Positions 14,737-46,792 of a DNA stretch of 64,000 bases are shown here, one piece after another; the first letter of the stretch is position 1, and the number at the start of each line of letters is the position of its first letter. The notes under the pieces were generated by a model that did no database searches, was not told the DNA's origin, and was given only the letters and a program-made list of their open reading frames with translations. Made by a program: the position numbers and the translations under genes. Source of the DNA: an uncultured bacterium. Its GTDB lineage: Bacteria; Acidobacteriota; Thermoanaerobaculia; Multivoradales; JAHZIX01. The DNA is taken from the NCBI GenBank assembly GCA_965368975.1, contig CBDUPA010000001.1, positions 544,001 through 608,000 of the forward strand, read 5' to 3'.

Positions 14737-15999
14737 ATGTCCACCGACTTCAAGAGCCGACAGACGCCCGGCGTCTACGTGACCGAACTCGACCCCTTCC
14801 CACCCTCCATGGTCGGCGTGCAGACCGCGGTCCCTGCCTTCGTTGGCTACACCGAAAAGGCGGAGGTCTCCGGCAAGCCCGTGAGGCTGAAGCCGGTCAA
14901 GTGTGGAGCGATGGTCGACTTCGACTTGATCTTCGGTGGTGCTCCGGCGAGCGGAGAGATCTTCCACCTCTACGACAGCCTGCGCCTCTTCTATGCCAAC
15001 GGTGGTGGCGAATGCTACGTGGTTTCCGTCGGTGACTACTCGGCTCCGGTGTCTCTGAAGCCCTTGCAGAAAGGACTGTCGGCGCTGGAGAACGAAGCTG
15101 AACCGACGATGTTGGTGATTCCTGATGCCGTCCTGCTGCCCGCTGACAGCAAGCCCATTGCCGGCACCTCACTGCCGAAGTCGCAAGCCTTCGCGACGCT
15201 GGTGCAGGCGATGCTGCAGCAGGCCGGGACGCTGCAGGATCGCGTCGCGATTCTCGACGTCTACGGCACGCTGTCCTTACCGGGTGCGAAGTCGGCGGAA
15301 TTCGACTCGAACCTGACGGCGCTGATCGAACAGTTCCGGCAGGATGTCGGGACCGAGTTCTTGAGCTACGGCGCGGCATACTTTCCGTTCTTGCAGACGT
15401 CGCTTGACGGCGTCGCGAATCCGTTGCCGCCGAGTCCCGCCCTGGCTGGCGTCTGCACACTCGTCGATACTTCGCGCGGCGTGTGGAACGCGCCGGCAAA
15501 TATCAGTCTGGGATCCGTTACGGCACCGACCGTTGTGATCAACGCCCAGCAACAGGCGGAGCTCAACACGCCGATCGACGGCAAGGCGGTGGATGCGATC
15601 CGCGAGTTCGTCGGCCGTGGCACGCTGGTGTGGGGGGCGCGGACCCTCGACGGCAACAGCAACGACTACCGCTACATTCAGGTGCGACGGACCCTGATCT
15701 ACATCGAGCAGAGCATCAAGGCAGCGCTCGGGCAGTTCGTCTTCGCAGCCAACGACGGCAAGACGTGGGCGACGGTGAAGTCCATGATCTCGAGCTTCCT
15801 GCACCAGCTCTGGGCGCAGGGCGGTTTGATGGGAGCGACGGCCTCGGAAGCATACTCGGTGGAAGTCGGACTGGGCAGTACGATGACGGCGCAGGACATC
15901 TTGGACGGCTACATGATCGTCCAGGTGACGCTGCAGATGATCCGCCCGGCGGAGTTCATTGAGCTGGTCTTCAAGCAGAAGATGGAGAGGAGCACCTGA
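14737..15999 (+). CDS. Contractile tail sheath protein (eCIS Afp2/3-like), orphan
   Basis: TPGVYVTE, TAVPAFVGYT, FYANGGGECYVVSVG, RGVWNAPAN, VWGARTL, YIQVRR and RPAEFI motifs. Confidence 0.92.
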   Translation: MSTDFKSRQTPGVYVTELDPFPPSMVGVQTAVPAFVGYTEKAEVSGKPVRLKPVKCGAMVDFDLIFGGAPASGEIFHLYDSLRLFYANGGGECYVVSVGDYSAPVSLKPLQKGLSALENEAEPTMLVIPDAVLLPADSKPIAGTSLPKSQAFATLVQAMLQQAGTLQDRVAILDVYGTLSLPGAKSAEFDSNLTALIEQFRQDVGTEFLSYGAAYFPFLQTSLDGVANPLPPSPALAGVCTLVDTSRGVWNAPANISLGSVTAPTVVINAQQQAELNTPIDGKAVDAIREFVGRGTLVWGARTLDGNSNDYRYIQVRRTLIYIEQSIKAALGQFVFAANDGKTWATVKSMISSFLHQLWAQGGLMGATASEAYSVEVGLGSTMTAQDILDGYMIVQVTLQMIRPAEFIELVFKQKMERST

Positions 16000-16090: not shown

Positions 16091-17179
16091 ATGCGACTCT
16101 CGAAATGCCCCGTTCTTCTCCTGGTGGTTGGCCTCTGGCTGGCGGTGACTCCGCTTCGGGCGATGCCGATCCCGCCCAACCCGCTCTGGACCTTGACACA
16201 GGATGCCGAACTGATCGTCGTTGCCGAAGTGACGGACCACGAGCCGTGGCGTGACGAGCGGGAGTCAGCGGATAGGTCGATGAGTAAGACGGTGGCGCTG
16301 CTCAGCATCCTCGATACGCTCAAGGGGCCGGAGTTGGAGACGGTTCGCGTGCCGTATCCGGCCGGCTTGGTCTGTCCGCAGCCGCCGCATTACTTCGACG
16401 GTGAGGTCGTCGTGGCCTTCCTGGAGCGCTACGACGACCGCTGGCACACGGTCTCGCTGTCCTTCGGCACGCTGTATCCGCAAGGGCCGGACCTCGATGA
16501 CGTGCTCACCATGACGCGCTGGGCGGTGCGGCTGCAGGCCGAGGCCGGTGCCGGGGGTGTGCTCCAAGAGCAGCGCATGCGCTGGTTGCTGGAAGCGGCG
16601 GCTCGGTCGGGGACGCGCTGGCATGCCTTGATGGAATTACAGCATCCAGAACTCTTGGTGGACAGGAGGCCGGGGGCGGCGGAGTACCGAGCGCCGGCAG
16701 CCTTGACCGACGAGGACTTCGCCGAACTCGCGCAGGCCTTGATCCGGGAGCCGAGACCGGATCACACGTTGCCGATGATGCTAGAGCTGCTGCGCGAGCA
16801 TCCGGAACCGGCCCTCGACGAGGTGGTGCTGGCGGTGACGGAGGGGATGTTGGCGCACGAGAAGCCGTCGTTTGTCCTGGAGTGGATGTTGTCGGAGGTC
16901 ATGAGGCGATTCGGCGAGCTCGAGCCCCGCGGGACCATCGAACGTTTCCAGGCTGCGCGCGAAGCGCAGGACGTGCCAGATTGGAGTGAGCGGATGCCGA
17001 CGATCGAGGAATGGCGGAGCTTCTGGATCGAGACGAAGCGGCGTTTGGGGATTCCGGACGTGGCGCCGGCCGAATTCGATCCGGAGCGCTACGAGTCTCT
17101 GGTACAGCGTCGGCATCGGGAAGAGCTAGCGGAGATCGAAGAGCTCTTGATTCGAGATATCGCCGAAGACGGCGGGTGA
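16091..17179 (+). CDS. Secreted hypothetical protein
   Basis: Signal peptide MRLSKCPVLLLVVGLWLAVTPLRA; N-terminal 'AELIVVAEV...CP.PPHY..GE.VVAFL' domain followed by a helical region. Confidence 0.7.
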   Translation: MRLSKCPVLLLVVGLWLAVTPLRAMPIPPNPLWTLTQDAELIVVAEVTDHEPWRDERESADRSMSKTVALLSILDTLKGPELETVRVPYPAGLVCPQPPHYFDGEVVVAFLERYDDRWHTVSLSFGTLYPQGPDLDDVLTMTRWAVRLQAEAGAGGVLQEQRMRWLLEAAARSGTRWHALMELQHPELLVDRRPGAAEYRAPAALTDEDFAELAQALIREPRPDHTLPMMLELLREHPEPALDEVVLAVTEGMLAHEKPSFVLEWMLSEVMRRFGELEPRGTIERFQAAREAQDVPDWSERMPTIEEWRSFWIETKRRLGIPDVAPAEFDPERYESLVQRRHREELAEIEELLIRDIAEDGG

Positions 17180-17299: not shown

Positions 17300-17530
17300 A
17301 TGAAGAAGAAGTTGCAGAGGCGTTTTGGCTTGAAGCGGGAAACCCTACGCACGCTCACGGAGTCAGTCTCGAGTCGGGCCGTCGGCGGTACGATCGGAAC
17401 GACGAATGTAGTCGACTGGACAGAGAATCCGGGTGGCATCAGCTGCATCTATCCGGGTGGTTGCGGCACCGGCTACGAGACCATCACCGATCCGGGTTGC
17501 GGGGCATCCTGCGAGCTGGAACCCTGCTGA
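17300..17530 (+). CDS. lanA: RiPP (lanthipeptide-like) precursor peptide, 76 aa
   Basis: AAGGAG RBS; leader MKKKLQRRFGLKRETLRTL...AVGG; core with 5 Cys and 9 Ser/Thr; directly upstream of a LanC gene. Confidence 0.85.
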   Translation: MKKKLQRRFGLKRETLRTLTESVSSRAVGGTIGTTNVVDWTENPGGISCIYPGGCGTGYETITDPGCGASCELEPC

Positions 17531-17541
17531 GCAGGACTTCC

Positions 17542-17578
17542 CTGGCCGTCTGCACGAAGTCTTCGGGCAGACGGCCAG
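17542..17578 (+). promoter_or_regulatory. Stem-loop between precursor and cyclase gene (attenuator or mRNA stabiliser)
   Basis: CTGGCCGTCTGC ... GCAGACGGCCAG perfect 12-bp inverted repeat with no U tract. Confidence 0.6.
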
Positions 17579-17597
17579 ACTTGCCTGGAGCCTTTCG

Positions 17598-18878
17598 ATG
17601 ACAGCTACCTTGATGCGACCGCAGCACGCGACAGCCCAGGGCACTTTGCTCGACGGTGATCTCGCGGAAGCGGCAAGAGAGTCGGTCGATGCCATCATCG
17701 CAGATCTGCTCGAATTGCCGCCCGAGCGCTGCTATAGCCGGCTCCTGCAAGCTCATAGGCCTTCCCTGGGAGCTTTGGAGCCTTGGGCTGCTTTGCTCTT
17801 CGCCTACGCGGCGGAGGCCGGGGTGACGTCGGCCGAGCCGGATGCTCTGGAGATGCGTGCACTCTTGACGCTCGACGAAGCACAGCAGCAGCTCGCCGCG
17901 GAGCAGCGCCTCGATCTCTACGGTGGTTGGTGTGGAGTCGGTTGGGCCTTGGCGCATCTCACCGAGGCCGAGGGCGACGATTTGTTGCAGTTGGATGCTG
18001 CCGTCGAGACTTTTCTGCAGGCAGAACACGAGTTCTGGAAGCTGGACCTCATTGGGGGGCTCGTCGGCTACGGGATCTACCTTCTGGAGCGCTTGCCGCG
18101 GCCGGCAGCGGTACAGGGGCTACGCTCACTGGTCGAGCAGCTGGAGCGCTTGGCGGAGCACACCGACGATGGTCTGATTACCTGGTGGACCCGGCCGGAA
18201 GTCATGCATGAGCAGGAACGCGTCGCCGCCGGTGTCTACAACCTGGGCTTGGCTCACGGCATCCCGGGTGTCGTTGGCCTGCTGGCGCGCGTTCATCGCG
18301 CCGGAATCGCGCAGGGGCAGTGCTCGGCTCTGCTCGCAGGTTCCCTTCCCTGGCTCTTGCAGCAGCGACTTCCCACGGGGATAGCTTCCTGCTTTCCACG
18401 CCAGCTGACGGCCGGTGAGAAGCCCGAGCCGTCGCGCATTGCCTGGTGCTACGGAGAGCTCGGTGCCGCCACTGCGATGCTGGCTGCTGCGCGCGAACTC
18501 AGCGATGTGGCCCTAGAACAGCAGGTGATCGACCTCGCCCTGCACGCCGCTCGCATTACCGGGCCAGTAGCAGGCGTCGTCGACCCGGGGCTGTGCCATG
18601 GTGCGGCTGGTAATGGGCACATCTTCCATCGGCTGTACCGCGCTACTGGCGAAGATGCCCTACGGCGGGCTGCGGTGTTCTGGTTCGAGCAGACTTTGGG
18701 GTATCGCCGGCCCGGGACGGGAATCGGCGGTTTTCAGTCGTTCTATCCGGGACGTCCTGAGCGACCTTGGTACGACGATGCCAGCCTCGTCATGGGCTCC
18801 ACGGGAATCGGTCTGGCCCTGCTTGCAGCCTTGACGCCTGAAGAGCCGGCATGGGATCAACTGCTACTGCTTTCTTGA
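17598..18878 (+). CDS. lanC: LanC-like lanthionine cyclase
   Basis: GLAHGIPG, WCYG and GLCHG (Cys/Cys/His zinc ligands present); GxxG alpha/alpha-barrel repeats; ATG 17598 with GGAG RBS. Confidence 0.9.
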   Translation: MTATLMRPQHATAQGTLLDGDLAEAARESVDAIIADLLELPPERCYSRLLQAHRPSLGALEPWAALLFAYAAEAGVTSAEPDALEMRALLTLDEAQQQLAAEQRLDLYGGWCGVGWALAHLTEAEGDDLLQLDAAVETFLQAEHEFWKLDLIGGLVGYGIYLLERLPRPAAVQGLRSLVEQLERLAEHTDDGLITWWTRPEVMHEQERVAAGVYNLGLAHGIPGVVGLLARVHRAGIAQGQCSALLAGSLPWLLQQRLPTGIASCFPRQLTAGEKPEPSRIAWCYGELGAATAMLAAARELSDVALEQQVIDLALHAARITGPVAGVVDPGLCHGAAGNGHIFHRLYRATGEDALRRAAVFWFEQTLGYRRPGTGIGGFQSFYPGRPERPWYDDASLVMGSTGIGLALLAALTPEEPAWDQLLLLS

Positions 18879-33511: not shown

Positions 33512-33873
33512 GTGACCCTGGGGATAAAGATCCGCTCACAAAGCTGAGAGTTCGGGAAATCCTCATGAACTACGGGTTGAAGGTCTTATTATATTGACAT
33601 TAAATAGAATTTTATTTATAGATATAGTGATATTGGGTTTATTGAGCTGGTATTATGAGTCAGACCCGCGTCCTCAACCGGGGGCGGCAAGAGCTAGAGC
33701 CCTGGATGTTTTGTAGAGGAGAAACGAAGGTTTGTTAGACAGAAGCCACATTTTCCGCCACAATTCATGCGGAAACAACGACTCATGAATACGGACTTTA
33801 GCGCGAAGTGCCAGAGGGGGGATATTGCGATGCTCAGTGAAGCGCAGCGCGTTAGGTGCCCCGCATCAATCCA

Positions 33874-35190
33874 ATGGCACAGCTAAGCTTCGTCGAACGT
33901 AGAAAGCTTGAGACGCTCTTCGAAATGGGCGGCGGGTACGTTCTCGACTTCTCAAACCGCACTCTTCAGGAATTTGTTGCGGACAGTGTTGGAGTCGAGA
34001 TTTACGACGAGCGATACAATTATGATTCCGGATCGAAGGCGAACCGGCTACGCGGGTTCTGGAAGATCGAATCCGATGCGAACGTTGCCAAACTCATCCG
34101 GGATTTGGTGGACTACGCGGAATTCCTAAACAAGAACACCGATGCGGACCTTGTTTCCGCATGTAGGGCCATAGCTGATCGGCTCGTTGCCAGGTCGAAC
34201 ACGAGCGATTCTGAGAATTCCGCTATGTCCCGTCCGATTCGCGTTTTCATTGCGTACAGCCATGATTCGCCCGAACACGTTCGCCAAGTACTAGCACTCT
34301 CGGACTCCCTGCGGCGGGACGGAATCGACGCCGACCTCGACCAATATCACTTATCGCCGACCGATGGATGGCCCGCGTGGGTCAGTAACCAACTCGCAAC
34401 TGCTGACTTCGTGATCATCGTCTGCACCAAGGTGTTCTTGCGACGTTTTCGCGGCGAAGATAAAGCCAGTATTGGACTTGGGGTTGAATATGAAGGCGCT
34501 CTCCTTCAGGAAACGAACTTCAATGACTCGTCCTTATTTGAAGTCGGTCGCAAGACAACAAGGTACCTGCCGGTTGTGTTTTCGAACACCGATTCAGCCT
34601 ACATTCCCCCGCAGTTTCGCGCGCTTACCTTCTACAACCTAACTGGGCCTGAAGGGTACGGTTTCCTATACCGGCGGCTTACCAATCAACCAAAGCTCGC
34701 CGCTTCCCCTATCGGTGAACTCTTCAAGCCGCCACCAAGAGCTACCGAAGATAAGCTCAACGGGCTACGCACGTTCCTCTGCCATTCGTCAAAGGACAAG
34801 CCAGCGGTCCGCGATCTCTACAAGAAGCTACTGACGCACAACGTAAGACCTTGGCTAGATGAAGAGGATCTATTGGCGGGGCAAATATGGCGCGAAGAGA
34901 TACCCAAGGCTATCCGTGGCTCGCATGCGGTAGTGGTTTGCTTATCAGCCAATGCCGTGAGCAAGGCCGGCTACTTTCACAAAGAGGTGAAATTCGCGCT
35001 TGACGTTCTGGACGAACAACCTGAAGGTACAGTTTTTGTCGTTCCGGTTCGTCTGGCAGAATGCGATATACCTGAACGCCTTGGGCATATTCACTGTGCA
35101 AACCTTTACGACCACAATGGATTCGAGAAATTGCTTCTCGCACTACAATCGCGCGCAAAGCAAGTCGCGGCTAACAACAAAGACATCTAG
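33874..35190 (+). CDS. Putative defence protein: abortive-infection-type N-terminal domain + SEFIR + TIR
   Basis: GGGYVLDFSNRT...GSKANRLRGFW; VFIAYSHDSPEH...LDQY...GWPAW...GVEYE (SEFIR); FLCHSSKDK...PWLDEEDLLAG...GYFHKEV (TIR); atypical codon usage. Confidence 0.85.
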   Translation: MAQLSFVERRKLETLFEMGGGYVLDFSNRTLQEFVADSVGVEIYDERYNYDSGSKANRLRGFWKIESDANVAKLIRDLVDYAEFLNKNTDADLVSACRAIADRLVARSNTSDSENSAMSRPIRVFIAYSHDSPEHVRQVLALSDSLRRDGIDADLDQYHLSPTDGWPAWVSNQLATADFVIIVCTKVFLRRFRGEDKASIGLGVEYEGALLQETNFNDSSLFEVGRKTTRYLPVVFSNTDSAYIPPQFRALTFYNLTGPEGYGFLYRRLTNQPKLAASPIGELFKPPPRATEDKLNGLRTFLCHSSKDKPAVRDLYKKLLTHNVRPWLDEEDLLAGQIWREEIPKAIRGSHAVVVCLSANAVSKAGYFHKEVKFALDVLDEQPEGTVFVVPVRLAECDIPERLGHIHCANLYDHNGFEKLLLALQSRAKQVAANNKDI

Positions 35191-35570: not shown

Positions 35571-35637
35571 CGCTAGCATTGAAGAGGTCTCAGTTTGGGA
35601 ATCTCGTCTGACGGCGGGGGACATCCTTGGTGCGAGA

Positions 35638-35925
35638 CTACCGCTCGCTCTTCGGCCTCTGAATCACCCGCATCGTCCCCTGCTCCTCTCGCTCCCGCTG
35701 CAACTTCTGCACGTGCTCCGTCAGCCACCGATCCCGCTCTGCCTGAGCTTCTTCGAGCGTCCGATACTTCCGGACTCCCTTCGGATAGCTGCGTGGATTC
35801 AAGAGCGCACTCCGTCGCCACAATTGACGAACCCGCTCGAGGTACGCGTCGTCTGGCTCATCGCACCACATGTCGCGGTCGGCGGCGTTCATTTCTTCGA
35901 GCGTTCGGAACTTTTGTACTGGCAT
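35638..35925 (-). CDS. Small hypothetical protein with duplicated VxK(F/Y)RTLEE motif; paralog of 26452-26709
   Basis: MPVQKFRTLEEM ... YPKGVRKYRTLEEAQAERDRW. Confidence 0.75.
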   Translation of the reverse strand: MPVQKFRTLEEMNAADRDMWCDEPDDAYLERVRQLWRRSALLNPRSYPKGVRKYRTLEEAQAERDRWLTEHVQKLQREREEQGTMRVIQRPKSER

Positions 35926-36065
35926 TGGAGCGGAGCCTCAATCCTCAAAGAAGAACCGTTGTAGAAGGCGTGAAGAGCTGCCTCGAGCGCCCATGACTAT
36001 CGAACGATGTTATCTCGCTTGGCGCCACGACGTCTGAGCGGCTCGGCTGTGCGCCCAGAAAATGC

Positions 36066-36096
36066 AAAAGCCCGGCATCTTCGAGATGCCGGGCTT
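36066..36096 (-). terminator. Intrinsic terminator after the small precursor gene
   Basis: AAGCCCGGCATCT-cga-AGATGCCGGGCTT 13-bp stem ending in TTTT, then GCATTTT, on the minus strand. Confidence 0.8.
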
Positions 36097-36117
36097 GACC
36101 GAAGGAGGTACTAGCCT

Positions 36118-36291
36118 TCAGCAGGCGAAGCAGGATCCGCCGATGTCGCAGGTCTGCTGGGAGTTGCAGGGATAGCACGTGAACGTGCAAACGACGGTGC
36201 AGACCTCGGTAGCAGCGCCCTTGGCTTGTTGCGTGGAAGATTCGCTGAGCACGGAGAGTGTTTCGCGGCTGAGGCGTAGCTTCTTCTTCAT
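36118..36291 (-). CDS. lanA: Second lanthipeptide-like precursor (57 aa, below the ORF-track cutoff)
   Basis: MKKKLRLSRETLSVLSESSTQQAKGAATEVCTVVCTFTCYPCNSQQTCDIGGSCFAC*; AAGGAGG RBS; own terminator; TTGACT-N18-TACCCT upstream (36382-36353). Confidence 0.85.
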   Translation of the reverse strand: MKKKLRLSRETLSVLSESSTQQAKGAATEVCTVVCTFTCYPCNSQQTCDIGGSCFAC

Positions 36292-36505
36292 AGGTATGAC
36301 CTCCTTGAAGATTTCTCAGAACCTGCTTAGGTTCAATGAATAATGTGTTCTTAGGGTAGTGTGCTTGGTAGGTCGAAGTCAATGCCCTGGTGGCGCTTGC
36401 TCGGTGGTCCGTGCCGGAATTGTCCGGTAGACGATCTGGTTGTTGAGCAAAACGACTGTCTCTCACGCGGAGCCCGACGCTATCCGCAACTACCGGAGGC
36501 CCCTG

Positions 36506-39500
36506 ATGCGAAACCGTGTTCGTCCCCTCGTTCTGCCGACCTTCGGCCTGTTGTTGCTGACTCTGACTTCGGCGGCGCACGCCCAGGAGCCGCTCTTCAC
36601 GTCGCAGGTGCGCAGTGCCCAAGGCGACGGATGGCGTGTGATGGTGAACGTGGACGGGCTCTTGACGGCACCGGAGTTGCTCACGTTCGAGTTACCTACG
36701 GGAGAGACGGTGTGGGCGCGTCAGGACCACTTCGAGGTCGACGGTTCGTTCGTCGACGACGAAGGCGACGTCCGAGAGACGTTTCGCTGGTGGGGCAAGA
36801 CGGACGATGGCGAAGACGTCCTGCTCAACGGCGTTGGGAACCAGGTGGCGGGAACGGTGATGCTGCAGTCAGGGATGTATCGGCTGCAGCCTACAGGCAG
36901 TCGTCAGCACCGCTGGTTCCGCGCAGCTGACCCGGAGGCGGGCTGCGGGACCGATCAGGATGTGGTGCAACGAGTCCGTTCGGTCCTCGAATCACGAGTG
37001 GCCGCTGAGGCCACGGCCTCGGCGGTGGTCACCGGACAGGACACGGGCACCGAGGATGTCGCGGCCGGCAAGGCGGGGCCGACAGTCGACGTGGTCATGG
37101 TCTACAGTCCTTCGGCCCGCGCGCGCGTCGGTGGGGATGCGGCGATGCTGGCGGAGATCCGCAGTGATATCGATTACACGAATCGGGCGCTGGGCAACAG
37201 CTTGATCGACGCGAGCGTTCGCCTCTTGCAGGTAGAGCAGGTGAACTATCAGGCGGACGCGGGCAGTGATGCCGGGCTCAACTGGTTGATCACCAACGGT
37301 GACGGCATTCGCCGCGCCTGGGGAGCAGATATCGTTGGGATCATCCACCACGTGACCGACTATTGCGGCATCGCTGCGTATCGGGGTATCCGCGGCAATG
37401 CCGACGGTGGCTTTTTCCTGACCGCCTCGAACTGTCTCGGCCGGGGCACGACGGCGCACGAGTTGGGGCATTTATGGGGTGCCGATCACGATCCTGAGAA
37501 CGCGGGCATCGCGCATGGCACGCAGTCGTTCGCCACCTATCCCGATGCCTATGGCAACTTCTATGACGGCATCTACCGCACGATCATGTCGTACAGCCGT
37601 CCGTGTGACCTGGGATGCCCCAAGGCACCGTACTTCTCCAATCCTGCGGTTTCGTATCTCGGTCGGCCGACGGGCACGAGCCAGCGCGCCAACCATCGCG
37701 TCATCCGCGACTACAGCCCGACAGTTTCGCGCTATTTCACGTCCAAGGCCGGGCCGCCGGCAGGGCCCACGGATCTGACCGCGGAAGTGGTGGAGACGGC
37801 GAGTGGCTTCGAGGTGATGCTGACCTGGACCGATCGCGCCAGCAAGGAGGGGCACTACGAACTCTACCGGGCGACGGACGGCGGCGCGCTGCCACGTTTG
37901 ACCCGGCTGAGCAAGAATAGCGAGCGTTATGTCGACCGGGCGGTCGAAGGGCGGCGAACCTACAGATACCAGGTGGAAGCGGTAAACCTGCAGGGCAGCA
38001 GCCGCTCGGAAGAGGTCGAGGTCGAGGTGGTGGCACTGGCGGCCCAGTTGGAGGTGCAAGCCAACCTGCTACGGGCCGGTGAGCCGGTGGTCTTTGACCT
38101 GCGGGTCGAAGGGAGTGGCCGGCGGGCACTGTGGTCCTTCACGCCGATTCTCGGCACACAAGCGACGGATGGGCTTGCGGTCACGGATGCCGCGAGTGGT
38201 TGGGGAGCGGTCCACGTGTTCGACACGCCCGGTGTGTATGAGGTCAGGGTGAAGGTGCAGGGCGGCCACGGACAGGAGGTCGCTGCGAACCTGACGCTCG
38301 ACGTACGTGGCGCGACGCCAGTCTGGACGCGCACGGCGTCGCGGTTGCAGAGCGTGATCCATGGTCCGCGCGGCGGCGGTGGCGTCTTCGAAAGCCAGCT
38401 GTGGCTGCACAATGCGGGCGCCGCGCCCGCGCTGGTCGACCTGGCGTTCCTGGCGCGCGGCCAGGACAACCGCACGGCGCGTCGGCGTGCGTTGACCTTG
38501 TTGCCGGGGCGGACGCTGCACTTGCCGGATGTGGTGTCGACGCTAGACGCCGAGGGCGCCGGGGCGCTGAGCGTCGAGGCGCGAGCCAATGCGGATCTGC
38601 ACAGCGCTGCGCCACGCGTGCTGGCCTTCGGTCGGTCGTTCGTCGAGCGTCCCCAGGGCCCGAACGGTGCGAGCTTCGGCCAGCGGGTGGGGGAAGAGCC
38701 GGCGGAGCTGTGGAGCGACGCCACGCGCTGGATCGTCGGGCTCTACGATGGTCCCGAGGTCGACGACGTGACCGAAGCTGACGACGGAGCCGAGACGGGC
38801 TGGCAGGCGACGTTGCACGGTGTCAACCTGGAGGATCGTCCCGGCCGCCTGACGCTGGAGCTGACGGACGCGCTGGGTCGTGCCGTCGGTGAGCCGGCAG
38901 AGCTGGGCTTGCCGCCGCAGGGCATGCGCTTCCAGCGGCTGATTCAGCTGTTCCCCGAGGTGCGTGCCTTCCAGCCACCGTTCACCGCGCGGGTGACATC
39001 CAATGGCATCCGCTTCCTGGCGTCCGGGACGCTGCTCGAGAGCGGCTCGGAGGATCAGGCGTTCTTACCAGGACAGGGTGAGCTGGTGGGGCCGGCGAGT
39101 GTCCAGACACGCCTGCTGATTCCGCGTGTCGTCGAGGGACCGGGGCAGTTTGGTGTCACGCTGAGTACGAGGCTGCTGCTGCACAATCCGGCTGACGTCG
39201 CGCGTACGCTAACGCTGGAGCTACTCGAACGGGGGCAGGACAACTCGCAGCCCAAGACTGCGACCGTGACGGTGCCGGCGGGACAGACGCGGGAGATCCG
39301 AGCGGTGTTGCCGTCGCTCTTCGACATCGACAGCGGTGCTGGTGCGCTGGCTCTCAGCTGGCAAGGGGAGGGACCTGCTCCGCAGGCGGCCGCGTTGGTC
39401 TTCGCGCGCGCTGAGGCGGGGGAGCGTTTCGCCACGCGCGTCGAGGCGCGCCCACCTACTGCAGCGGCGACCGAGCGGTCGATCGACTTCGGTGCCGAGC

Positions 39501-39805
39501 AGTCGTCGCGTTTCACGTCTGCCTACGGTGTGCTCAGCCTGTTCGAGCGCACGACGCGGCTGGAGCTGATCCTGCGCGACGGCCAGGGCGTCGAGCTGGC
39601 ACGGCGGACACAGAACTTGCGGCCACATCAGCATCTGGAGCGGAGTCTGCTCGGGCTCTTCGAGGACGCGGCTGGTCAGCTCCAAGGCGTCCAGGATCTG
39701 GCTGTCGAGACGCGCGTGCTGGCAGGTGGGCCAGTGCTCACGTACCTGATCAATGTCAACGTCTCGGGTGACGTCTTCTACGTGCCGGGGCGTGGGTGGC
39801 GCTAG
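36506..39805 (+). CDS. Secreted reprolysin-like (M12) zinc metalloprotease with FN3, PKD-like and C-terminal repeats
   Basis: Signal peptide; AHELGHLWGADHD; Met-turn RTIMSY; YFSNP; FN3 (LTWTDRAS.E..Y); two 'GP.G.....L.LHN' repeats; GGAGG RBS. Confidence 0.88.
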   Translation: MRNRVRPLVLPTFGLLLLTLTSAAHAQEPLFTSQVRSAQGDGWRVMVNVDGLLTAPELLTFELPTGETVWARQDHFEVDGSFVDDEGDVRETFRWWGKTDDGEDVLLNGVGNQVAGTVMLQSGMYRLQPTGSRQHRWFRAADPEAGCGTDQDVVQRVRSVLESRVAAEATASAVVTGQDTGTEDVAAGKAGPTVDVVMVYSPSARARVGGDAAMLAEIRSDIDYTNRALGNSLIDASVRLLQVEQVNYQADAGSDAGLNWLITNGDGIRRAWGADIVGIIHHVTDYCGIAAYRGIRGNADGGFFLTASNCLGRGTTAHELGHLWGADHDPENAGIAHGTQSFATYPDAYGNFYDGIYRTIMSYSRPCDLGCPKAPYFSNPAVSYLGRPTGTSQRANHRVIRDYSPTVSRYFTSKAGPPAGPTDLTAEVVETASGFEVMLTWTDRASKEGHYELYRATDGGALPRLTRLSKNSERYVDRAVEGRRTYRYQVEAVNLQGSSRSEEVEVEVVALAAQLEVQANLLRAGEPVVFDLRVEGSGRRALWSFTPILGTQATDGLAVTDAASGWGAVHVFDTPGVYEVRVKVQGGHGQEVAANLTLDVRGATPVWTRTASRLQSVIHGPRGGGGVFESQLWLHNAGAAPALVDLAFLARGQDNRTARRRALTLLPGRTLHLPDVVSTLDAEGAGALSVEARANADLHSAAPRVLAFGRSFVERPQGPNGASFGQRVGEEPAELWSDATRWIVGLYDGPEVDDVTEADDGAETGWQATLHGVNLEDRPGRLTLELTDALGRAVGEPAELGLPPQGMRFQRLIQLFPEVRAFQPPFTARVTSNGIRFLASGTLLESGSEDQAFLPGQGELVGPASVQTRLLIPRVVEGPGQFGVTLSTRLLLHNPADVARTLTLELLERGQDNSQPKTATVTVPAGQTREIRAVLPSLFDIDSGAGALALSWQGEGPAPQAAALVFARAEAGERFATRVEARPPTAAATERSIDFGAEQSSRFTSAYGVLSLFERTTRLELILRDGQGVELARRTQNLRPHQHLERSLLGLFEDAAGQLQGVQDLAVETRVLAGGPVLTYLINVNVSGDVFYVPGRGWR

Positions 39806-39942: not shown

Positions 39943-40947
39943 ATGACTTCCGAAACAGCAGCCGCACCGACCCTCGACGAGATCCGGGACGCGCGTCGCC
40001 GAGTCGGTGACTTGATCGTCACCACGCCGACCTGGCACTGGCGCGGCCGCGAGGCCGAGAGGGCCTTCGGCGACACCCAGGTGTTCCTCAAGCTCGAGCT
40101 GTTCCAGTACGCGGGTACCTTCAAGCCGCGCGGCGCTCTGCTCAACATGCTGGAGATGGACGACGACGCGCGCCGTCGAGGTGTCACCGCGGTGAGCGCG
40201 GGCAACCACGCGATGGCGGTGGGGTACGCCGCCAAGGCCTTGGGCATGCAGGCCAAGGTGGTGATGCCGAAGACGGCCAGCCCGGTGCGTGTGCAAGGGT
40301 GTGAGGCGTACGGCGCCGAGGTGGTGCTGGTTGACGACGTGCATCAGGCCTTCGACGAGGTCAGGCGGATCGAGCGCGAAGAAGGCCGCACCTTCATTCA
40401 TCCCTTCGAGGGGCGCAACGTGGCGCTGGGCACCGGCATGGTGGGCCTGGAGCTGGCCGAGCAGGTCCCGGATCTCGATGCGGTGATCATTCCGGTGGGG
40501 GGCGGTGGTCTGGCGGCTGGTATCTCGACGGCGTTGCGTGCGGCGCAGCCGAGCTGTGATTTGTTCGGCGTCGAACCCGAGGGGGCCGACTCGATGCACC
40601 GCAGCTTCGCTGCTGGCAGTCCGCAGGCGATCGAGCGCGTGCGCACCATCGCGGACAGCCTCGGCGCCCCGCATGCGGCGCCGTATAGTTTCGAGCTCTG
40701 CCGCCGCAACCTGACCGGCCTGGTGAAGATCGACGACGATGCGTTGCGTGCGGCCATGGGACTGCTGTTCGCGGACATGAAGCTGGCTGTGGAGCCAGCG
40801 GCCGCGGCGGCGACGGCAGCTCTCTCCGGCCCTCTGGCCGAGCGCTTGCGCGGGCGCCGGGTGGGACTGGTGGTCTGTGGAACCAACTACGATCTGGCCA
40901 GCTTCGCGGCCAATGCCCAAGGCGGAACTGCCCGGCGGCCGACCTAG
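39943..40947 (+). CDS. PLP-dependent threonine/serine dehydratase family protein
   Basis: LKLELFQYAGTFKPRG, SAGNH, PVGGGGL and VEPAAA motifs. Confidence 0.9.
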   Translation: MTSETAAAPTLDEIRDARRRVGDLIVTTPTWHWRGREAERAFGDTQVFLKLELFQYAGTFKPRGALLNMLEMDDDARRRGVTAVSAGNHAMAVGYAAKALGMQAKVVMPKTASPVRVQGCEAYGAEVVLVDDVHQAFDEVRRIEREEGRTFIHPFEGRNVALGTGMVGLELAEQVPDLDAVIIPVGGGGLAAGISTALRAAQPSCDLFGVEPEGADSMHRSFAAGSPQAIERVRTIADSLGAPHAAPYSFELCRRNLTGLVKIDDDALRAAMGLLFADMKLAVEPAAAAATAALSGPLAERLRGRRVGLVVCGTNYDLASFAANAQGGTARRPT

Positions 40948-40984
40948 TCGACCCGCTGCCCAGGCGCCCGTGGCGTGCCACCTG

Positions 40985-43900
40985 ATGCTGGACATCGGAA
41001 CCAAACTCCTCGATCGCTACGAGATCCTCGCCGAAATTGGCCGCGGTGGCGTGGGCGTGGTGTACGAGGCGAGCGACATCAAGCTGCAGCGGACCGTGGC
41101 GGTCAAGTTGCTCAACGCACCGCGCGCCGATGCCGAGACGCTGGCCCGCTTCGACCGTGAAGCGCGTTTGATCGCACGCCTGGACCATCCGGCGATCGTG
41201 CCGATCTTCGACGTTGGCAGTTGCGACCTCGGGGCGGAAGGCGAAGTGCCGTACTTTGTCATGCCGCACGTCGGTGGCGAGAGCCTGCGTTCGCGCCTGC
41301 GCCTGCGCTCACTGAGCCTGTCCGAGATGCTGGATGTGCTGGTGCAGGTAGCGCGCGGGCTCGACTACAGCCACGCCAAGAACGTCGTGCACCGTGACGT
41401 CAAGCCGGGCAATATCGTGTTGTCGCAGGAGCCCGGCGGCGGCTTGCGTGCACGGCTGACGGATTTCGGCATGGCGCGCAGCGGAGAGTTCGACGAGCGG
41501 CTGACCGATACCGGTTCGGTCATGGGCACGATGGTCTATCTGAGCCCGGAGCAGGCCTGCGGACACGATGTCGACGCGCGCTCCGACATCTACTCACTGG
41601 GCGTCGTGCTCTACGAGTGCCTCGCCGGCACGCCGCCGTTCACCGGCAATCCGGCGGCGGTGGTGATGGGAATCACTCAGCTGCAACCGGCGTCGCTGTC
41701 CGAGCGTGGGCTCGGGCTGGACGACGAGCTGGAGGCTCTGGTGCTGCAGTGCCTGGAGAAAGACCCGGCCCTACGGCCGCCGACCGCTGGCGAAGTGGCC
41801 GCGCGCCTGCTGCGTTTGCGGGCGCGGCTGGTCGAAGGTGAGACGATGACGGTGCCGGTTCTGCCGCCGGTGGTCGGCCGCGGTCAGGAAGCGACGCGGA
41901 TCCTGCATCCCAGTGGCGAGGCGACCGCTGTTTTCGAGTCGCAGCCGCGGAAGCCACGCGGTGCACCTGGGGTACCGCTTTCGTGTCTGTGCCGTGAGGA
42001 CGAGCTGGACGCGCTGGAGAGGCGTCTGCGCGCGGCGGTCGAGACGGCGGGTTGTCAGCTGGTGCTGATCGGTGGTGAGACCGGCATGGGCAAGACCGAA
42101 CTAGTAGAGGAACTCGGACGGCGCGCGCAGAACGGTGGCGGTTTGGTTCTCAGTGGTCGCTTTGTCGAGGACGATGCCTTCGCCCACCAAGGTTTCTGTG
42201 AGTTGATCCAAGATTATTTCGATGGCGGTTCAGTGCGCGGCATGACGCTGGTGGAAGATCTCGCCGACCTGGTGCCGGATCTGCTCGGCCTCTTTCCCAG
42301 CCTGGGCGAGATCGAGGCGCTGCGCGGCTTCGCCTCGTCGCGCGGCTGGCGCAGCGGCGACCGCCGCCGCAGCGAGGATCCGACCCACATCTTCGAGCTG
42401 ATCTCCCGCACGCTGATCCGGATGGGAGAAGGCCGTGTGCTGGTGCTGCTGCTGGAGGAGCTGCACGCCACACATGCCGGTATCGAGGCGTTGCATTACG
42501 TGGTGCGGCGGCTGGCCGCAACGACGACCCTGATGGTGGGTACCTTCCGTCCCTCGGCCACGACCGGCGAGCATCCCCTGGACCAGATGCGTGCGGCCTT
42601 CGCCGGTGATCCCCGCTTTCAACTCCTGGAACTCGAGCGTCTGAACGCCGAGCAGCACCTGCGCCTGCTGCGCGCGATCACCGGTAAGGAACACATTGAC
42701 CCTAAACTGGCACGGCGCCTGCTCGAGATCACCGAAGGCAACCCCTTCTTTACCCGTGAAGTGGTGCGCTCACTGAGGCCGGAGGGGGGCACTTTGCCCA
42801 GGTCGCCGTGGCAGATCGGAGCCGATGCAGGTTCGGATTCGCAAGCCGGCTGGGACGTCGAGTCGGCCGTCGGCATGCTGCCGGACACGATCCAGCAGGT
42901 GGTCAGCCGCCGACTGCAGCGCCTGTCGGCGGAACTGCGGCAGGTGCTCAGCGTCGCCGCGGTGCTTGGCCGTACCTTTGCCTTCTCCGACCTGGGTGCA
43001 CTGGTGCAACTGCCCGGTGATCTGGATGATGCGGTCGATGCTCTGGTGACGGCGGCCTTTCTCGAAGAGGCTCCGCAACTGGCCGGTGATCAGCTGCGTT
43101 TTTCCAGTGCCATCGTCCGCGACGTGCTCTACGACGAATTGCCACCGCGCAAGCGGCGGTCACTGCACCGCGCTTTCGCCAACCACCTGGAAGCGACCTA
43201 CGCCGGACGTTTGGAGCAGGTCTACCCGCAGCTGCTGCATCACTACGTCTGTGCCCGCGTGGCCGAGCGCGTGCGAGATTATGGGCTGCGGCTGGCCAGC
43301 TTGAAGGTGGAGCTTTCGAGCGGTGCCGCGGCGCTGGCCGCTGCCGAGCGCGCCGCCGCGGCGCAGGCCGAGCTGACGGAGGTGGGGCCGGCCGCCGCCG
43401 GTGAATTGAGCCGGGTGCTGGGGCAGTCCAAGCACCTGACCGGGGACTTCGACGGCGCGCTGGAGGCTTTTTCCGAGGCCGATCGACACTTTCGGCGCAG
43501 CGGCCAGACGGCGGAACGCACGCATGTCGCGGCCCTGGCGGCCGAGGCTGCCTGGCGCGCGCGGCGCGTCGACGAGGTGGGTGCCTGGGTGGATCGCGGC
43601 CTGGCCCAGGTCGGGCCGGGCGTCGAACTGCACCGCCGACGCCTGCTGCGCCTGGGCGCCACGCTGGCCAACCTGCGCGGTGAATACCACCGGGCGCGTC
43701 AGTACCAGCAGCAGGCCGACCAGTTGCGTCCGCGCCAGCTCGAAGGGCGCACCGAGATGCCGCGCGGTGGCCGCCTGGTGGTCGGCTTGCCGGCGGAACT
43801 GCGGGGTCGCCACCCAGTGGAGCTGCGACTGGTGGAGGAGATGGAGGTGCTGGCCAACGTGTTCGAGACGTTGTTGGTCAAGGACAGCCAGGGCGTGCTG

Positions 43901-46792
43901 CTGCCGCACTTGTGTACCCGCTGGCGCCTGCACAGCTCCGGCCGTTCGGTGCGCCTGGAGCTGCGCAACGACGTGCTCTTGCACGACGGCCGCCCGCTGA
44001 CGGCTGCCGATGTCAAGGCCTCGATACAGTGGGCCGTGCGCCGTTGCAGTGAGCGCCTACCGCCGGCGCTGGCCGCGATTCGGGGCGTGGGTTCCTGGCG
44101 TCGGGGCGATGCCGACGACCTGGAAGGGGTCTGTGTGCTGGCGGCGAGTGAGTTGGAGGTGCTGCTCGAGGAGCCATTGCCGATCTACCCGGAGCTGCTC
44201 ACCGATACACGCACAGCGGTCGCCATTCCGGTTGCCGACGCGAGTGAAGCACAGCTGGAAGCCGGTATTCGCGACCAGGCGGGCCTGCTGCTCGGGACCG
44301 GTCCTTTCCGTCCCGTGCAGGTGGCCACACAGCGCGTCGAGTTGGCCCGCCAGGAAGCCTACTGGGATCAGCCGCCACGTCTCGACGTGCTCGAGTTCCA
44401 GGCCGGCCTGGAGTCCGAGCAGATGGCCGAGGGGCTCCGCGGCGGTAGTCTCGACATGGCTCTGGAACTGCGCCCGGACGATCTCGAAAGCCTGTTGCGC
44501 GACCGCCGCCTGCGTCGCCGCCTGGTGGAAACTCCTTGGACCAACAGCTTCTTCGTGGTCTTCGACCGCGCCGGCGAAGTCGCCCGTCACTACGCACTCC
44601 GCCGAGCGCTGTCCGGCGTCGTGCAAACCGATAGCCTGGTACGCCGCTTGCTCGGCCGCCTGGCCCAGCCGGCCGACGGCTTGTTACCGCCCGGTATCCT
44701 CGGGCACGACCCGGGGCGGCGGCGCGAGCGCCTGTCGCTGGTGCAGGCACGAGAGGTCTTGGAGGACGTCGGCCTGCGGCCTCCGATCCGCCTGCGCGTC
44801 ATGCTCCATCCCAGCTTCCGCAATCGCTATGACCAACTGGCGCGGGAACTCTTCGAGCTGTGGGCGCAGTTGGGGGTCGAGGTCGACATCGAATCGGGCG
44901 GTCTGACCCACTATTTGTCGCACCCTGAGCGGGGGACGGAAGAAGGCGCACCGCACGTCGATGTCATCCTGGCTCGCTGGATCGCTGACTACCAGGACCC
45001 GGACATCTTCACGCACGGTCTTTTTCACTCGCAGCAGGGGCGCTTCCGCCACTCGTGCTCGTCACCTCAAGGTGATCGGCTGCTCGAACAGGCGCGCGCA
45101 AGTGCCGATCCAGATGTCCGCGCCGACTTGTATCGTCGCTTCGAGGATCAACTGCTCGACAGCCATCTCTTGCTGCCGCTCTTCCACGAGATCAACTACC
45201 GTCTGCTGGGTCCCAACGTGCGCGGGCTCGAAGTGTCGGGCACACCGCCGTACGTCAACTACCGGCAGCTGGCCAAGCTCGGTACGCGGCCAGCGGGGTC
45301 ACTCCTACCCGCCGAGTCCAGCGGCCGCGCTACCGGGGCGGGACTCTCGGTGGCACGCATTCCGGTGGCCCGTATCCCGATGATGGGGCACCTCAATGAC
45401 CTGGACCCAGCGGTGCCGATCGCTTCTCGCCTGCAGGCACTGAGCGCCCTCTACGAAACGCTCATGCGCCAGGGGGACAGTGCACGTATCGAGCCCTGGC
45501 TGGCCGAGTCGGTCGACAGGCTCGACCAGGGCCGATGCCTACGCCTTCGCCTGCGCCGCGACGTTCGTTTCCACGATGGGCGTCGTTTCGGTGCACGCGA
45601 CGTGCGTTTCTCCTTCGAGCGCCTGCTGCGCAGCTCCAGCTACAGTCGCTGGTTGCTGGCACCGGTGCGGGGAGCCCGCGACGTGCTCGAAGGGCGTACG
45701 CGCGAACTCGTCGGTCTGCGGCTGCGCTCGGCCTTCGAACTCGATATCGAGCTGGAGTATCCGGTTGCGTTCTTTCCCGCGGTGCTTACCGCGGTAGCTA
45801 TCGTCGCGGAGGGCAGTGACGATTTCACTGGCGACTGGCGTACCTGCGGTGGTGCTACCGGTCCCTTCCGAGTCCGCCGCTTCGACCCAGGCCGCGGCCT
45901 CGATCTGGAGGCCAACCCGGACTACTGGCGCGAAGGCTTGCCGCGCCTGGATCGTCTGTGCTTTGACTTCAACGTGCCGCCCGCGTCGGCGCTCGAAGGC
46001 TTGCACAGCGGCCGCTTCACCCTCGCCTGGGAATTGCCACCGTCAGCGCTGGAGAGCCTGGAGCAGGATGGGGACTTGCTGTTCCGGGAGATTCCTGGCC
46101 TGGCTACCGCTTTCCTTGCGTGCAACGTTCACCGGGGGCCGCTGGCCGATTCTGAAACGCGCCGACGGCTGGCCGCGGGGCTTGGTGTCCCGGACCTGGT
46201 GCAACGTCATCTGGGCCGCCTCGGAACCGTGGCGCGTAGCCTGATCCCACCCGATCTGCTGGGCTACGAGCCGCTGCAGTCACGACAGCCGAAGTCGTCG
46301 TCGCAGCCGCCGGTCGAGCTGGCGGTCATGCTGCAGTCTGCCTTCCAGAGCCAGTATGCAGACATGGCGCGCGACCTGCTGAGACAGCTGGAGAATTGTG
46401 GCTTCCGCGTACGCTTGGTCGAGCCGCACCCTTTCTACCAGGCGCTGCTGCCAAACCAGCGGGTCGACCTGGTGATCAGTCGTTGGATCGCCGACTATCC
46501 AGATCCCGACGCCTTCGTGCACAGCGTGTTGCACAGCGTCGAGGGTGGGGTCGGGGCGCTGTGTGGCGATCGCGCCCTCGACGCGCTGATCGATGAAGGG
46601 CGCAAGACCGCCGACACGGTCCGTCGACGTGAGATCTACCGCGACATCGAAGGCCTTCTGGCGCGCGAGCAGCGCCTGCTGCCACTGTTTCACGAGCAGA
46701 TCTACCGCTATGCGCGGCCGGAAGTACGCGACTTCGAGATCCACCTGTCGCCGCCGCAAGTCGCCTATGAGAAGTTGTGGCTGCAGGGCTGA
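40985..46792 (+). CDS. Ser/Thr kinase - STAND/AAA ATPase - TPR - tandem family-5 solute-binding domain protein
   Basis: HRDVKPGN/DFG/YLSPE; GETGMGKT, LLLEELH, EGNPFF; two OppA/DppA-like repeats (FETL/YETL, HDGR....DV..S, TGPFR, WIADY.DPD). Confidence 0.88.
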   Translation: MLDIGTKLLDRYEILAEIGRGGVGVVYEASDIKLQRTVAVKLLNAPRADAETLARFDREARLIARLDHPAIVPIFDVGSCDLGAEGEVPYFVMPHVGGESLRSRLRLRSLSLSEMLDVLVQVARGLDYSHAKNVVHRDVKPGNIVLSQEPGGGLRARLTDFGMARSGEFDERLTDTGSVMGTMVYLSPEQACGHDVDARSDIYSLGVVLYECLAGTPPFTGNPAAVVMGITQLQPASLSERGLGLDDELEALVLQCLEKDPALRPPTAGEVAARLLRLRARLVEGETMTVPVLPPVVGRGQEATRILHPSGEATAVFESQPRKPRGAPGVPLSCLCREDELDALERRLRAAVETAGCQLVLIGGETGMGKTELVEELGRRAQNGGGLVLSGRFVEDDAFAHQGFCELIQDYFDGGSVRGMTLVEDLADLVPDLLGLFPSLGEIEALRGFASSRGWRSGDRRRSEDPTHIFELISRTLIRMGEGRVLVLLLEELHATHAGIEALHYVVRRLAATTTLMVGTFRPSATTGEHPLDQMRAAFAGDPRFQLLELERLNAEQHLRLLRAITGKEHIDPKLARRLLEITEGNPFFTREVVRSLRPEGGTLPRSPWQIGADAGSDSQAGWDVESAVGMLPDTIQQVVSRRLQRLSAELRQVLSVAAVLGRTFAFSDLGALVQLPGDLDDAVDALVTAAFLEEAPQLAGDQLRFSSAIVRDVLYDELPPRKRRSLHRAFANHLEATYAGRLEQVYPQLLHHYVCARVAERVRDYGLRLASLKVELSSGAAALAAAERAAAAQAELTEVGPAAAGELSRVLGQSKHLTGDFDGALEAFSEADRHFRRSGQTAERTHVAALAAEAAWRARRVDEVGAWVDRGLAQVGPGVELHRRRLLRLGATLANLRGEYHRARQYQQQADQLRPRQLEGRTEMPRGGRLVVGLPAELRGRHPVELRLVEEMEVLANVFETLLVKDSQGVLLPHLCTRWRLHSSGRSVRLELRNDVLLHDGRPLTAADVKASIQWAVRRCSERLPPALAAIRGVGSWRRGDADDLEGVCVLAASELEVLLEEPLPIYPELLTDTRTAVAIPVADASEAQLEAGIRDQAGLLLGTGPFRPVQVATQRVELARQEAYWDQPPRLDVLEFQAGLESEQMAEGLRGGSLDMALELRPDDLESLLRDRRLRRRLVETPWTNSFFVVFDRAGEVARHYALRRALSGVVQTDSLVRRLLGRLAQPADGLLPPGILGHDPGRRRERLSLVQAREVLEDVGLRPPIRLRVMLHPSFRNRYDQLARELFELWAQLGVEVDIESGGLTHYLSHPERGTEEGAPHVDVILARWIADYQDPDIFTHGLFHSQQGRFRHSCSSPQGDRLLEQARASADPDVRADLYRRFEDQLLDSHLLLPLFHEINYRLLGPNVRGLEVSGTPPYVNYRQLAKLGTRPAGSLLPAESSGRATGAGLSVARIPVARIPMMGHLNDLDPAVPIASRLQALSALYETLMRQGDSARIEPWLAESVDRLDQGRCLRLRLRRDVRFHDGRRFGARDVRFSFERLLRSSSYSRWLLAPVRGARDVLEGRTRELVGLRLRSAFELDIELEYPVAFFPAVLTAVAIVAEGSDDFTGDWRTCGGATGPFRVRRFDPGRGLDLEANPDYWREGLPRLDRLCFDFNVPPASALEGLHSGRFTLAWELPPSALESLEQDGDLLFREIPGLATAFLACNVHRGPLADSETRRRLAAGLGVPDLVQRHLGRLGTVARSLIPPDLLGYEPLQSRQPKSSSQPPVELAVMLQSAFQSQYADMARDLLRQLENCGFRVRLVEPHPFYQALLPNQRVDLVISRWIADYPDPDAFVHSVLHSVEGGVGALCGDRALDALIDEGRKTADTVRRREIYRDIEGLLAREQRLLPLFHEQIYRYARPEVRDFEIHLSPPQVAYEKLWLQG

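Follow-up and report, generated by a model that had tools for sequence, protein, structure and literature searches.

A precursor-like gene that stands apart from any enzyme able to act on its product raises the question of whether that product is modified and, if so, by what. Such a gene is present at 36118..36291 on the minus strand of the window analysed here, a 64,000-nucleotide stretch (C1:544001-608000) of the genome of an uncultured acidobacterium (7.13 Mb, 59 contigs, 65.4% G+C). The initial annotation had read this open reading frame (ORF) of 57 amino acids as a stand-alone lanthipeptide-like precursor, one of a dispersed class I-type library whose shared enzymes would act in trans. 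This proposal was supported at the genomic level by sequence comparisons and a predicted complex. We consider it probable that the gene encodes a LanA-type precursor belonging to a library of about 55 members, which share a leader and carry unrelated Cys/Ser/Thr-rich cores, and that its product is matured by way of a LanB encoded on another contig, C13.

The ORF was present at the position given in the initial annotation, which had named no strand; it lies on the minus strand, with an ATG start, 57 codons and a stop at 36118-36120. A Shine-Dalgarno sequence, AAGGAGG, which had been recognized beforehand, was located in the sequence at 36300..36306 (minus), 8 nucleotides (nt) 5' of the ATG. The claim of a terminator belonging to the gene itself was also upheld, as stem search and folding detected an intrinsic-terminator-like hairpin with a T-rich tail at 36058..36096 (minus), in which a 13-bp stem with 8 G-C pairs (36096..36068) begins 22 nt past the stop. 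The folding energy of the 86-nt terminator stretch was -40.1 kcal/mol (z = -3.99), and 0 of 200 shuffled sequences were as stable. A candidate promoter had been claimed as well and was left unconfirmed because a scan for sigma-70 sites, and for no other promoter type, detected 0 consensus sites in 35600-36700. The frame of the ORF had the top codon-usage score among the six frames, the score itself being near zero, and a G+C content at third codon positions of 0.79 vs 0.60 overall. A Pfam scan of the 57-amino-acid peptide detected nothing meaningful (UL92, E = 0.32). Overall, these results indicated that the tiny gene at this site is real.

Residues 1 to 26 of the peptide (36214..36291, minus) constitute a leader with the motif L5-x-L7-x-R9-x5-L15 and a Gly-Ala end. 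Written out, the motif is L5-R-L7-S-R9-ETLSV-L15, which conforms to LxLx(K)x5L with Arg replacing Lys. According to excerpts of Walker et al. (2020, BMC Genomics, PMC7268733), an LxLxKx5L motif combined with a Gly-Gly end is found in class I LanAs of Bacteroidetes, in which it replaces the FxLD box, and a C39 protease often accompanies these precursors. Residues 1 to 25 of the target matched NCBIfam NF038153 (lant_leader_L1a, class I lanthipeptide) with 18.9 and 19.9 bits in two scans, values that fall below the curated cut-off of 22 bits. This was the only NCBIfam model to match the target at E <= 1, and no Nif11 or NHLP model was detected at that threshold. The leader end, Gly25-Ala26, is of the double-glycine type and aligns with the Gly-Gly of a homologue, P0002; a cut would be predicted to occur after this pair.

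The leader pattern put forward in the initial annotation was run in six frames over the whole genome, with a spacer of 0 to 8 residues instead of 0 to 6, and gave 20 matches; a looser regular expression gave 27. A genome leader profile built from the 27 leaders so defined was searched against 119,434 stop-to-stop six-frame segments of at least 30 amino acids, and 52 short ORFs were detected at E < 0.01, with the target at 35.8 bits (E = 3.1e-8). The addition of three weaker, plausible ORFs produced a family set of 55, distributed over 21 contigs and including some defective rows (two ORFs without an ATG as trimmed and one with a 4-residue core). With NF038153 itself, the genome gave 36 matches at E <= 1, and 16 of these exceeded the cut-off. 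The family leader consists of 25 to 30 residues of the form M-KK...K-L-x-L-x-R-E-T-L-x-x-L...G-G/A and ends in GG, GA or AG in most paralogues. In an alignment of 47 paralogous leaders (A3), M1 and L7 were invariant and L5, T11 and L12 were kept in at least 90%, and the mean column identity was 41%, as compared to 19% over whole peptides in a second alignment (A1). Codon usage favoured the annotated frame over the other five in 55 of 55 family members, and a Shine-Dalgarno-like core was present at -4 to -17 in 50 of 55, as compared to 577 of 5,000 random ATGs. The target is one of a large set of genes that share a conserved leader.

These genes are dispersed, and most have no recognizable maturation enzyme beside them. 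Genes were called with a simple, crude codon-usage caller, and Pfam scans covered the called genes of at least 90 amino acids within 4.5 kb of 33 precursor loci outside the window (L018-L050) and of the two loci inside it. LanB or LanC was detected near 2 of the 33 outside loci and LanC at one of the two window loci, that is, at three loci in total. Other neighbours of a type associated with peptides that are synthesized ribosomally and modified post-translationally (RiPPs) were limited, in the same scans, to one radical S-adenosylmethionine (radical-SAM) protein and one MbnB/TglH-type protein. The remaining precursor loci sit among unrelated genes (rho, ccm, methylmalonyl-CoA mutase, rpoC, groES/EL and pan). 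An unrecognized local enzyme may still be present near precursor loci, because gene calling was crude and many proteins had no Pfam match. For the target, no RiPP-modifying enzyme was found among the Pfam-scanned neighbours within about 10 kb, which agrees with the earlier observation that none is adjacent.

The absence of a dehydratase from the genome had been named in advance as a point that would count against a shared, trans-acting system; a full-length LanB was found on C13. Lant_dehydr_C was detected in two copies, one in this protein and one in a split LanB on C12. The C13 LanB (1159 amino acids; N domain, 558 bits; C domain, 223 bits) is the only full-length LanB in the genome, and its neighbours are two LanC genes and a pair of precursors that bear the family leader. 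The target gene and this LanB are on different contigs and hence lack the usual clustering of a precursor with LanB/LanC genes. A family precursor also precedes each of two more stand-alone LanCs, one in the window and one at C13:186 kb. The window precursor (17300..17530, plus strand, 76 amino acids) has a Gly-Gly before its core, lies directly upstream of the LanC gene and matched the genome leader profile with 23.9 bits and the A3 profile with an E value of 2.5e-9; the resemblance of its leader to that of the target, described in the initial annotation, is real. The LanC-like cyclase occupies 17433..18878 (plus; PF05147, E = 8.1e-37) as its longest ORF, the ATG at 17598 being the more likely start, and it has no LanB nearby. 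It carries H-G-I-P-G, W-C-Y-G and C-H-G motifs; one C13 LanC likewise has all three motifs (His, Trp-Cys and Cys-His). A search of genome contigs for relatives of the window LanC detected one locus, with 38% identity, in a metagenome-assembled genome labelled uncultured Myxococcales. The LanC-like protein at C13:186 kb (L040:7395-8705, C13:~186.4-187.7 kb; PF05147, E = 1.4e-26) was without Trp-Cys-x-Gly and Cys-His-Gly zinc-ligand motifs in a simple motif search. Cassettes of this kind, with a LanC and no dehydratase, are chemically sensible only if LanB acts in trans.

The relationship between leader and LanB was examined in 40 relatives, 5 from the same family as the source genome and 35 from the same order. 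NF038153 was detected at E <= 0.01 in 7 of the 40 (G007, G010, G011, G020, G030, G038 and G039). Lant_dehydr_C was detected in 17, and matches of at least 206 bits occurred in exactly the seven leader-positive genomes, in ORFs of about 1130 to 1430 amino acids except in G030, in which the ORF ends at the contig end. The next match scored 145 bits, and the 10 genomes with only weaker matches had no leader match. The leader was therefore present in 7 of 7 relatives with a strong full-length LanB and in 0 of 33 without one. This co-occurrence spans three families besides that of the source genome, and it is a pattern rather than a statistic because the genomes are kin. Leader ORFs lay about 4 kb from LanB in G007, G010 and G038, and there was no NF038153 leader match on the LanB contig in G011, G030 and G039.

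Leaders ending in GG or GA, Cys-rich cores, the lack of an enzyme near most precursors and the presence of three peptidase-C39 ATP-binding cassette (ABC) exporters (C13:97 kb, C13:122 kb and C8:194 kb), none near LanB, would also suit double-glycine secreted peptides, bacteriocin-like or signal-like, that are only cut and exported by C39 transporters and are otherwise unmodified or disulfide-bonded. The leader would then be an export signal and not a site of LanB recognition. We regard this explanation as unlikely, and the composition of the cores is one reason. The core of the target (36121..36213, minus) has 31 residues and begins with three consecutive T-x-x-C units; its content of 7 Cys and 7 Ser/Thr after the Gly-Ala is as had been reported. 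The 55 cores together contain 189 Cys and 316 Ser/Thr in 1646 residues, counts that are little affected by the crude regular expression used for placing the cut sites, which is off by 1 to 2 residues in some rows. Ser/Thr equalled or exceeded Cys in 54 of 55 cores. In lanthipeptides the dehydratable residue usually lies N-terminal of its Cys partner, and a Ser/Thr was found 2 to 5 residues upstream of 148 of the 189 Cys, as compared to 101 +/- 6.7 in shuffled cores, a level that 0 of 2,000 shuffles reached. Similarly, the 55 cores had 91 [ST]x(2-3)C motifs vs 66.7 +/- 6.9 in within-core shuffles (0 of 2,000 reached this number), and the reverse order, Cx(2-3)[ST], occurred 63 times, as compared to the shuffle mean of 66.7 for the forward motif. 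Cores with an odd number of Cys (27) were about as many as those with an even number (28), and this lack of an even-number bias disfavours purely disulfide-bonded peptides. Furthermore, an export signal alone does not account for the confinement of the leader to relatives with a strong full-length LanB, or for the same leader being carried by both precursors in the LanB/LanC cluster and by those beside stand-alone LanCs.

If the precursors are modified as lanthipeptides, the work could be done by an enzyme other than the C13 LanB. The genome encodes a LanM (C18), three larger LanC-domain ORFs, the split LanB on C12 and four LanB_N-only proteins (C9), and the libraries of prochlorosin type in excerpts of PMC7268733 are class II. 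Maturation by the LanM, by a class III/IV-type LanC-domain protein, by the split LanB or by an unrecognized enzyme is nonetheless improbable in our assessment, and the evidence comes from the location of these genes and from the libraries of relatives. No family precursor lies within 4.5 kb of the LanM or the split LanB in the source genome, and relatives with only weaker, split or short matches to the LanB C-terminal domain had no leader match. Searches with the A3 profile at E <= 0.001 detected 55 matches in G106, 40 in G096, 28 in G011, 18 in G039 and 7 in G007. G106 and G096 are complete single-contig genomes in which the leader matches are spread along the chromosome. A single LanB of at least 556 bits is present in each of G106, G096, G011 and G039. 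LanC-domain matches numbered three in G011 and two in G039, all in ORFs of 414 to 502 amino acids off the LanB contig, and two of the LanCs of G011 adjoin leader ORFs. No LanM-sized LanC-domain ORF was detected at E <= 1e-10 in either G011 or G039, which shows that libraries of 28 and 18 leaders occur without one. In favour of another enzyme, G106 and G096 contain 5 and 4 LanM-sized LanC-domain ORFs, respectively. These accompany the one strong LanB and a number of stand-alone LanCs, so that more than one lanthipeptide class coexists with the large library in each of the two genomes.

Docking of the leader on the C13 LanB was modelled as a predicted complex between LanB residues 1 to 850 (alignment A2, 7 orthologues) and the precursor (alignment A1, 53 paralogues). 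The complex scored 0.64 (runs of 0.66, 0.64 and 0.64), and the best of three controls scored 0.00; among solved complexes 116 of 157 attain the mark applied to such scores, and among mismatched pairs 2 of 215 do so, counts that apply only approximately here, as our own alignments were used. The runs shared at least 41% of contacts, with a predicted local distance difference test (pLDDT) value of at least 39 for the partner. In the model, leader residues 4 to 18 contact LanB residues 256 to 263, in antiparallel pairings, and residues 290 to 316. The model supports docking of the leader on LanB.

Under the reading that we favour, maturation by the C13 LanB, we infer the dehydration, cyclization, export and any activity of the target product, and the course of events would be as follows. 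The leader would dock on the single full-length class I LanB, which would dehydrate Ser/Thr residues of the core by means of glutamyl-tRNA. One or more LanCs would then join the seven Cys to dehydro residues, giving up to seven thioether rings, the first three of which would probably be of the T-x-x-C type. Finally, one of the three peptidase-C39 ABC exporters would cut after Gly25-Ala26 and secrete a product of 31 residues. On a broader proposal we are evenly divided: that this is the class I counterpart of the prochlorosins, in which one glutamyl-tRNA-dependent LanB would serve about 55 dispersed precursors here, and 18 to 55 in relatives, by way of the L-x-L-x-R-E-T-L leader, with satellite cassettes of a precursor and a stand-alone LanC supplying cyclases for particular cores. 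Such an arrangement would constitute natural combinatorial biosynthesis in which unlinked loci share out dehydration and cyclization.

Several observations weigh against maturation of the target by the C13 LanB. The match to NF038153 is below the cut-off, and the leader was found in 0 of 5 genomes of the same family. The leader system is patchy in its distribution: a search with the target peptide in 150 other genomes of the order gave matches in 19 (15 of 21 in one family), all at the level of the leader only and with a best identity of 45%, and an even phylum-wide sample searched at E <= 1e-7 gave 1 to 2 matches each in 2 of 250 genomes besides the source genome. Large libraries are not general in the phylum sample, because only these 2 of 250 genomes matched. 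The number of T/S-x(2-3)-C units in the target core, six vs 2.9 in shuffles, is by itself only mildly unusual, since 178 of 5,000 shuffles reached six. Among 5.8 billion proteins the only homologue of the target core was P0002 (78 amino acids, E = 1e-5, 49% identity), which retains T28, C31, T32, C35, T/S36 and C39 of the target; one weak homologue is too few for judging conservation of the core. A further protein, P0003 (E = 0.88), was a leader-only match in which leader residues 1 to 15 were identical and the core was different. The LanM, the larger LanC-domain proteins, the split LanB or the LanB_N-only proteins could act instead of the C13 LanB. LanB-leader complexes have already been solved, and the pass of the predicted complex may reflect likeness to these, with the fold of the partner uncertain. 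That the target is a decaying or silent copy, unexpressed or unprocessed, is very improbable, since the lack of a sigma-70 consensus promoter, the codon score near zero and the damaged-looking family members (one with a 4-residue core and two without an ATG) are set against an intact frame, a strong and correctly spaced Shine-Dalgarno sequence, a terminator of its own, a complete leader motif and a balance of 7 Ser/Thr with 7 Cys.

Within about 10 kb of the target, the neighbours were genes for ProRS, DnaJ, ClpB, a TIR/SEFIR protein, two small unknown ORFs, an M12B-like metalloprotease, a pyridoxal phosphate-type (PLP) enzyme and a giant kinase fusion. The TIR/SEFIR protein (33856-35190, plus; 444 amino acids) lies directly downstream of the precursor locus; it combines a SEFIR domain at the N terminus with a TIR domain at the C terminus (TIR_2, E = 2.2e-34) and weakly resembles anti-phage TIR proteins. 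The metalloprotease gene (36440-39805, plus) is divergent from the precursor at a distance of 148 bp and encodes a secreted-looking reprolysin/M12B-type protein of 1121 amino acids with a PKD domain. Its candidacy as a dedicated leader protease was unsupported, because none of the other precursor loci was seen to have a Reprolysin-type neighbour. In the kinase fusion (40877-46792, plus; 1971 amino acids), a Ser/Thr kinase is combined with an AAA_16 ATPase and with a solute-binding domain of family 5. Upstream of the precursor-LanC cassette of the window are a gene for a phage-tail-sheath-like protein (14737-15999, plus; Phage_sheath_1C, E = 3.4e-11) and, directly adjacent to the cassette, a gene for a 362-amino-acid protein without any family (16091-17179, plus).

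Some of the other family loci had features of their own. A local array of six family ORFs is present on C11 (L035:7991-9392 and 15475-15942, C11:~198-206 kb), in the vicinity of CHAT/TPR genes, kinase/TPR genes and an extracytoplasmic function (ECF) sigma factor; one ORF of the array has a 4-residue core after its Gly-Gly and is probably a truncated copy. Peptidase_S9 (prolyl-oligopeptidase family) genes adjoin precursors at L020:5496-7670 (C1:~266.5-268.7 kb) and L028:4921-7338 (C7:~120.9-123.3 kb). These precursors have Pro-rich cores with a C-terminal Cys pair and may represent a sub-family with its own protease. The radical-SAM protein (L033:14721-15737, C10:~199.7-200.7 kb) is encoded divergently from the precursor at C10:200.8 kb, which has the top-scoring leader in the genome. 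The MbnB/TglH/ChrH-type RiPP enzyme (L050:5497-6537, C27:~34.5-35.5 kb; E = 1.2e-61) lies about 2 kb from the precursor at C27:37.4 kb, and an asparagine-synthase-like gene is directly downstream of that precursor. The four LanB_N-only proteins on C9 (L053:6538-19062, C9:~118.5-131 kb) are consecutive, have 811 to 905 amino acids and lack an elimination domain; the run adjoins an ATP-grasp/CoA-ligase protein and looks like a cluster of the tRNA-dependent peptide-aminoacyl-ligase type.

According to excerpts of PMC7268733 and to paper abstracts, large one-enzyme natural lanthipeptide libraries have so far been tied to class II ProcM-type synthetases. If a LanB/LanC system with about 50 substrates exists here, it would provide substrate-tolerant class I enzymes for peptide engineering and a compact, portable leader, of which about 15 residues touch LanB in the model. 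It would also explain precursor and LanC cassettes without a dehydratase, and it would mean that, in these lineages, genome mining confined to a few genes near LanC gives a tally of class I products that is too low by an order of magnitude. Should the relatives with complete single-contig genomes, G106 and G096, be cultured, the library idea could be tested directly in them. In the literature searched, which lay mostly outside subscription journals and included excerpts of PMC12328550, PMC8692599 and PMC13083261, no such class I library was described.

The closest known systems are class I precursors of the NF038153 type, with which the target shares a basic N terminus, the L-x-L-x-K/R-x5-L motif, a GG or GA end, a core of Ser/Thr and Cys, and the presence of LanB, LanC and C39 exporters in the genome. 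Class I precursors with LxLxKx5L...Gly-Gly leaders are what we take to be the pinensin family. The target differs in having its LanB on another contig, a score below the cut-off, Arg for Lys, GA for GG and about 55 copies in the genome, whereas the precursors described in excerpts of PMC7268733 are from Bacteroidetes and lie within seven genes of LanC; the same source states that its own search, limited to seven genes around LanC, overlooks precursors located farther away. A second comparison is with nisin (NisA/NisB/NisC), in which the dehydratase and cyclase are also separate. NisB recognizes the leader, and the leader of the target is likewise predicted to lie as a strand on an N-terminal element of LanB. 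Unlike nisin, which has an FNLD-type leader box and a subtilisin-like LanP, the target has L-x-L-x-R-E-T-L, a cleavage site of the double-glycine type and a gene that is not clustered with the enzymes. Class II bacteriocins of the double-glycine type, which are exported by C39 transporters, share the GG/GA motif, and three such transporters are present in the genome; unlike these bacteriocins, the family has a Ser/Thr-before-Cys bias, no even-Cys bias and a co-occurrence with LanB. The prochlorosins (ProcA/ProcM, class II), as described in excerpts of PMC7268733 and PMC10783134, resemble the system in having many scattered precursors, a conserved leader, hypervariable cores and a remote enzyme. 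They differ in lineage and in their Nif11/NHLP-type leader, of which there was none in the target at E <= 1. A different class of enzyme is also implicated here, namely LanB with separate LanCs having Cys-Cys-His-type motifs, and satellite precursor and LanC cassettes are present. As for the single class II LanM that characterizes prochlorosins, the source genome has one LanM and the libraries of G011 and G039 are without a LanM-sized ORF. Overall, this comparison indicated that the target adds a new member, with a score below the threshold, to a known leader family, and that the architecture, which recurs in several relatives with 18 to 55 copies, is a class I variation on the prochlorosin idea.

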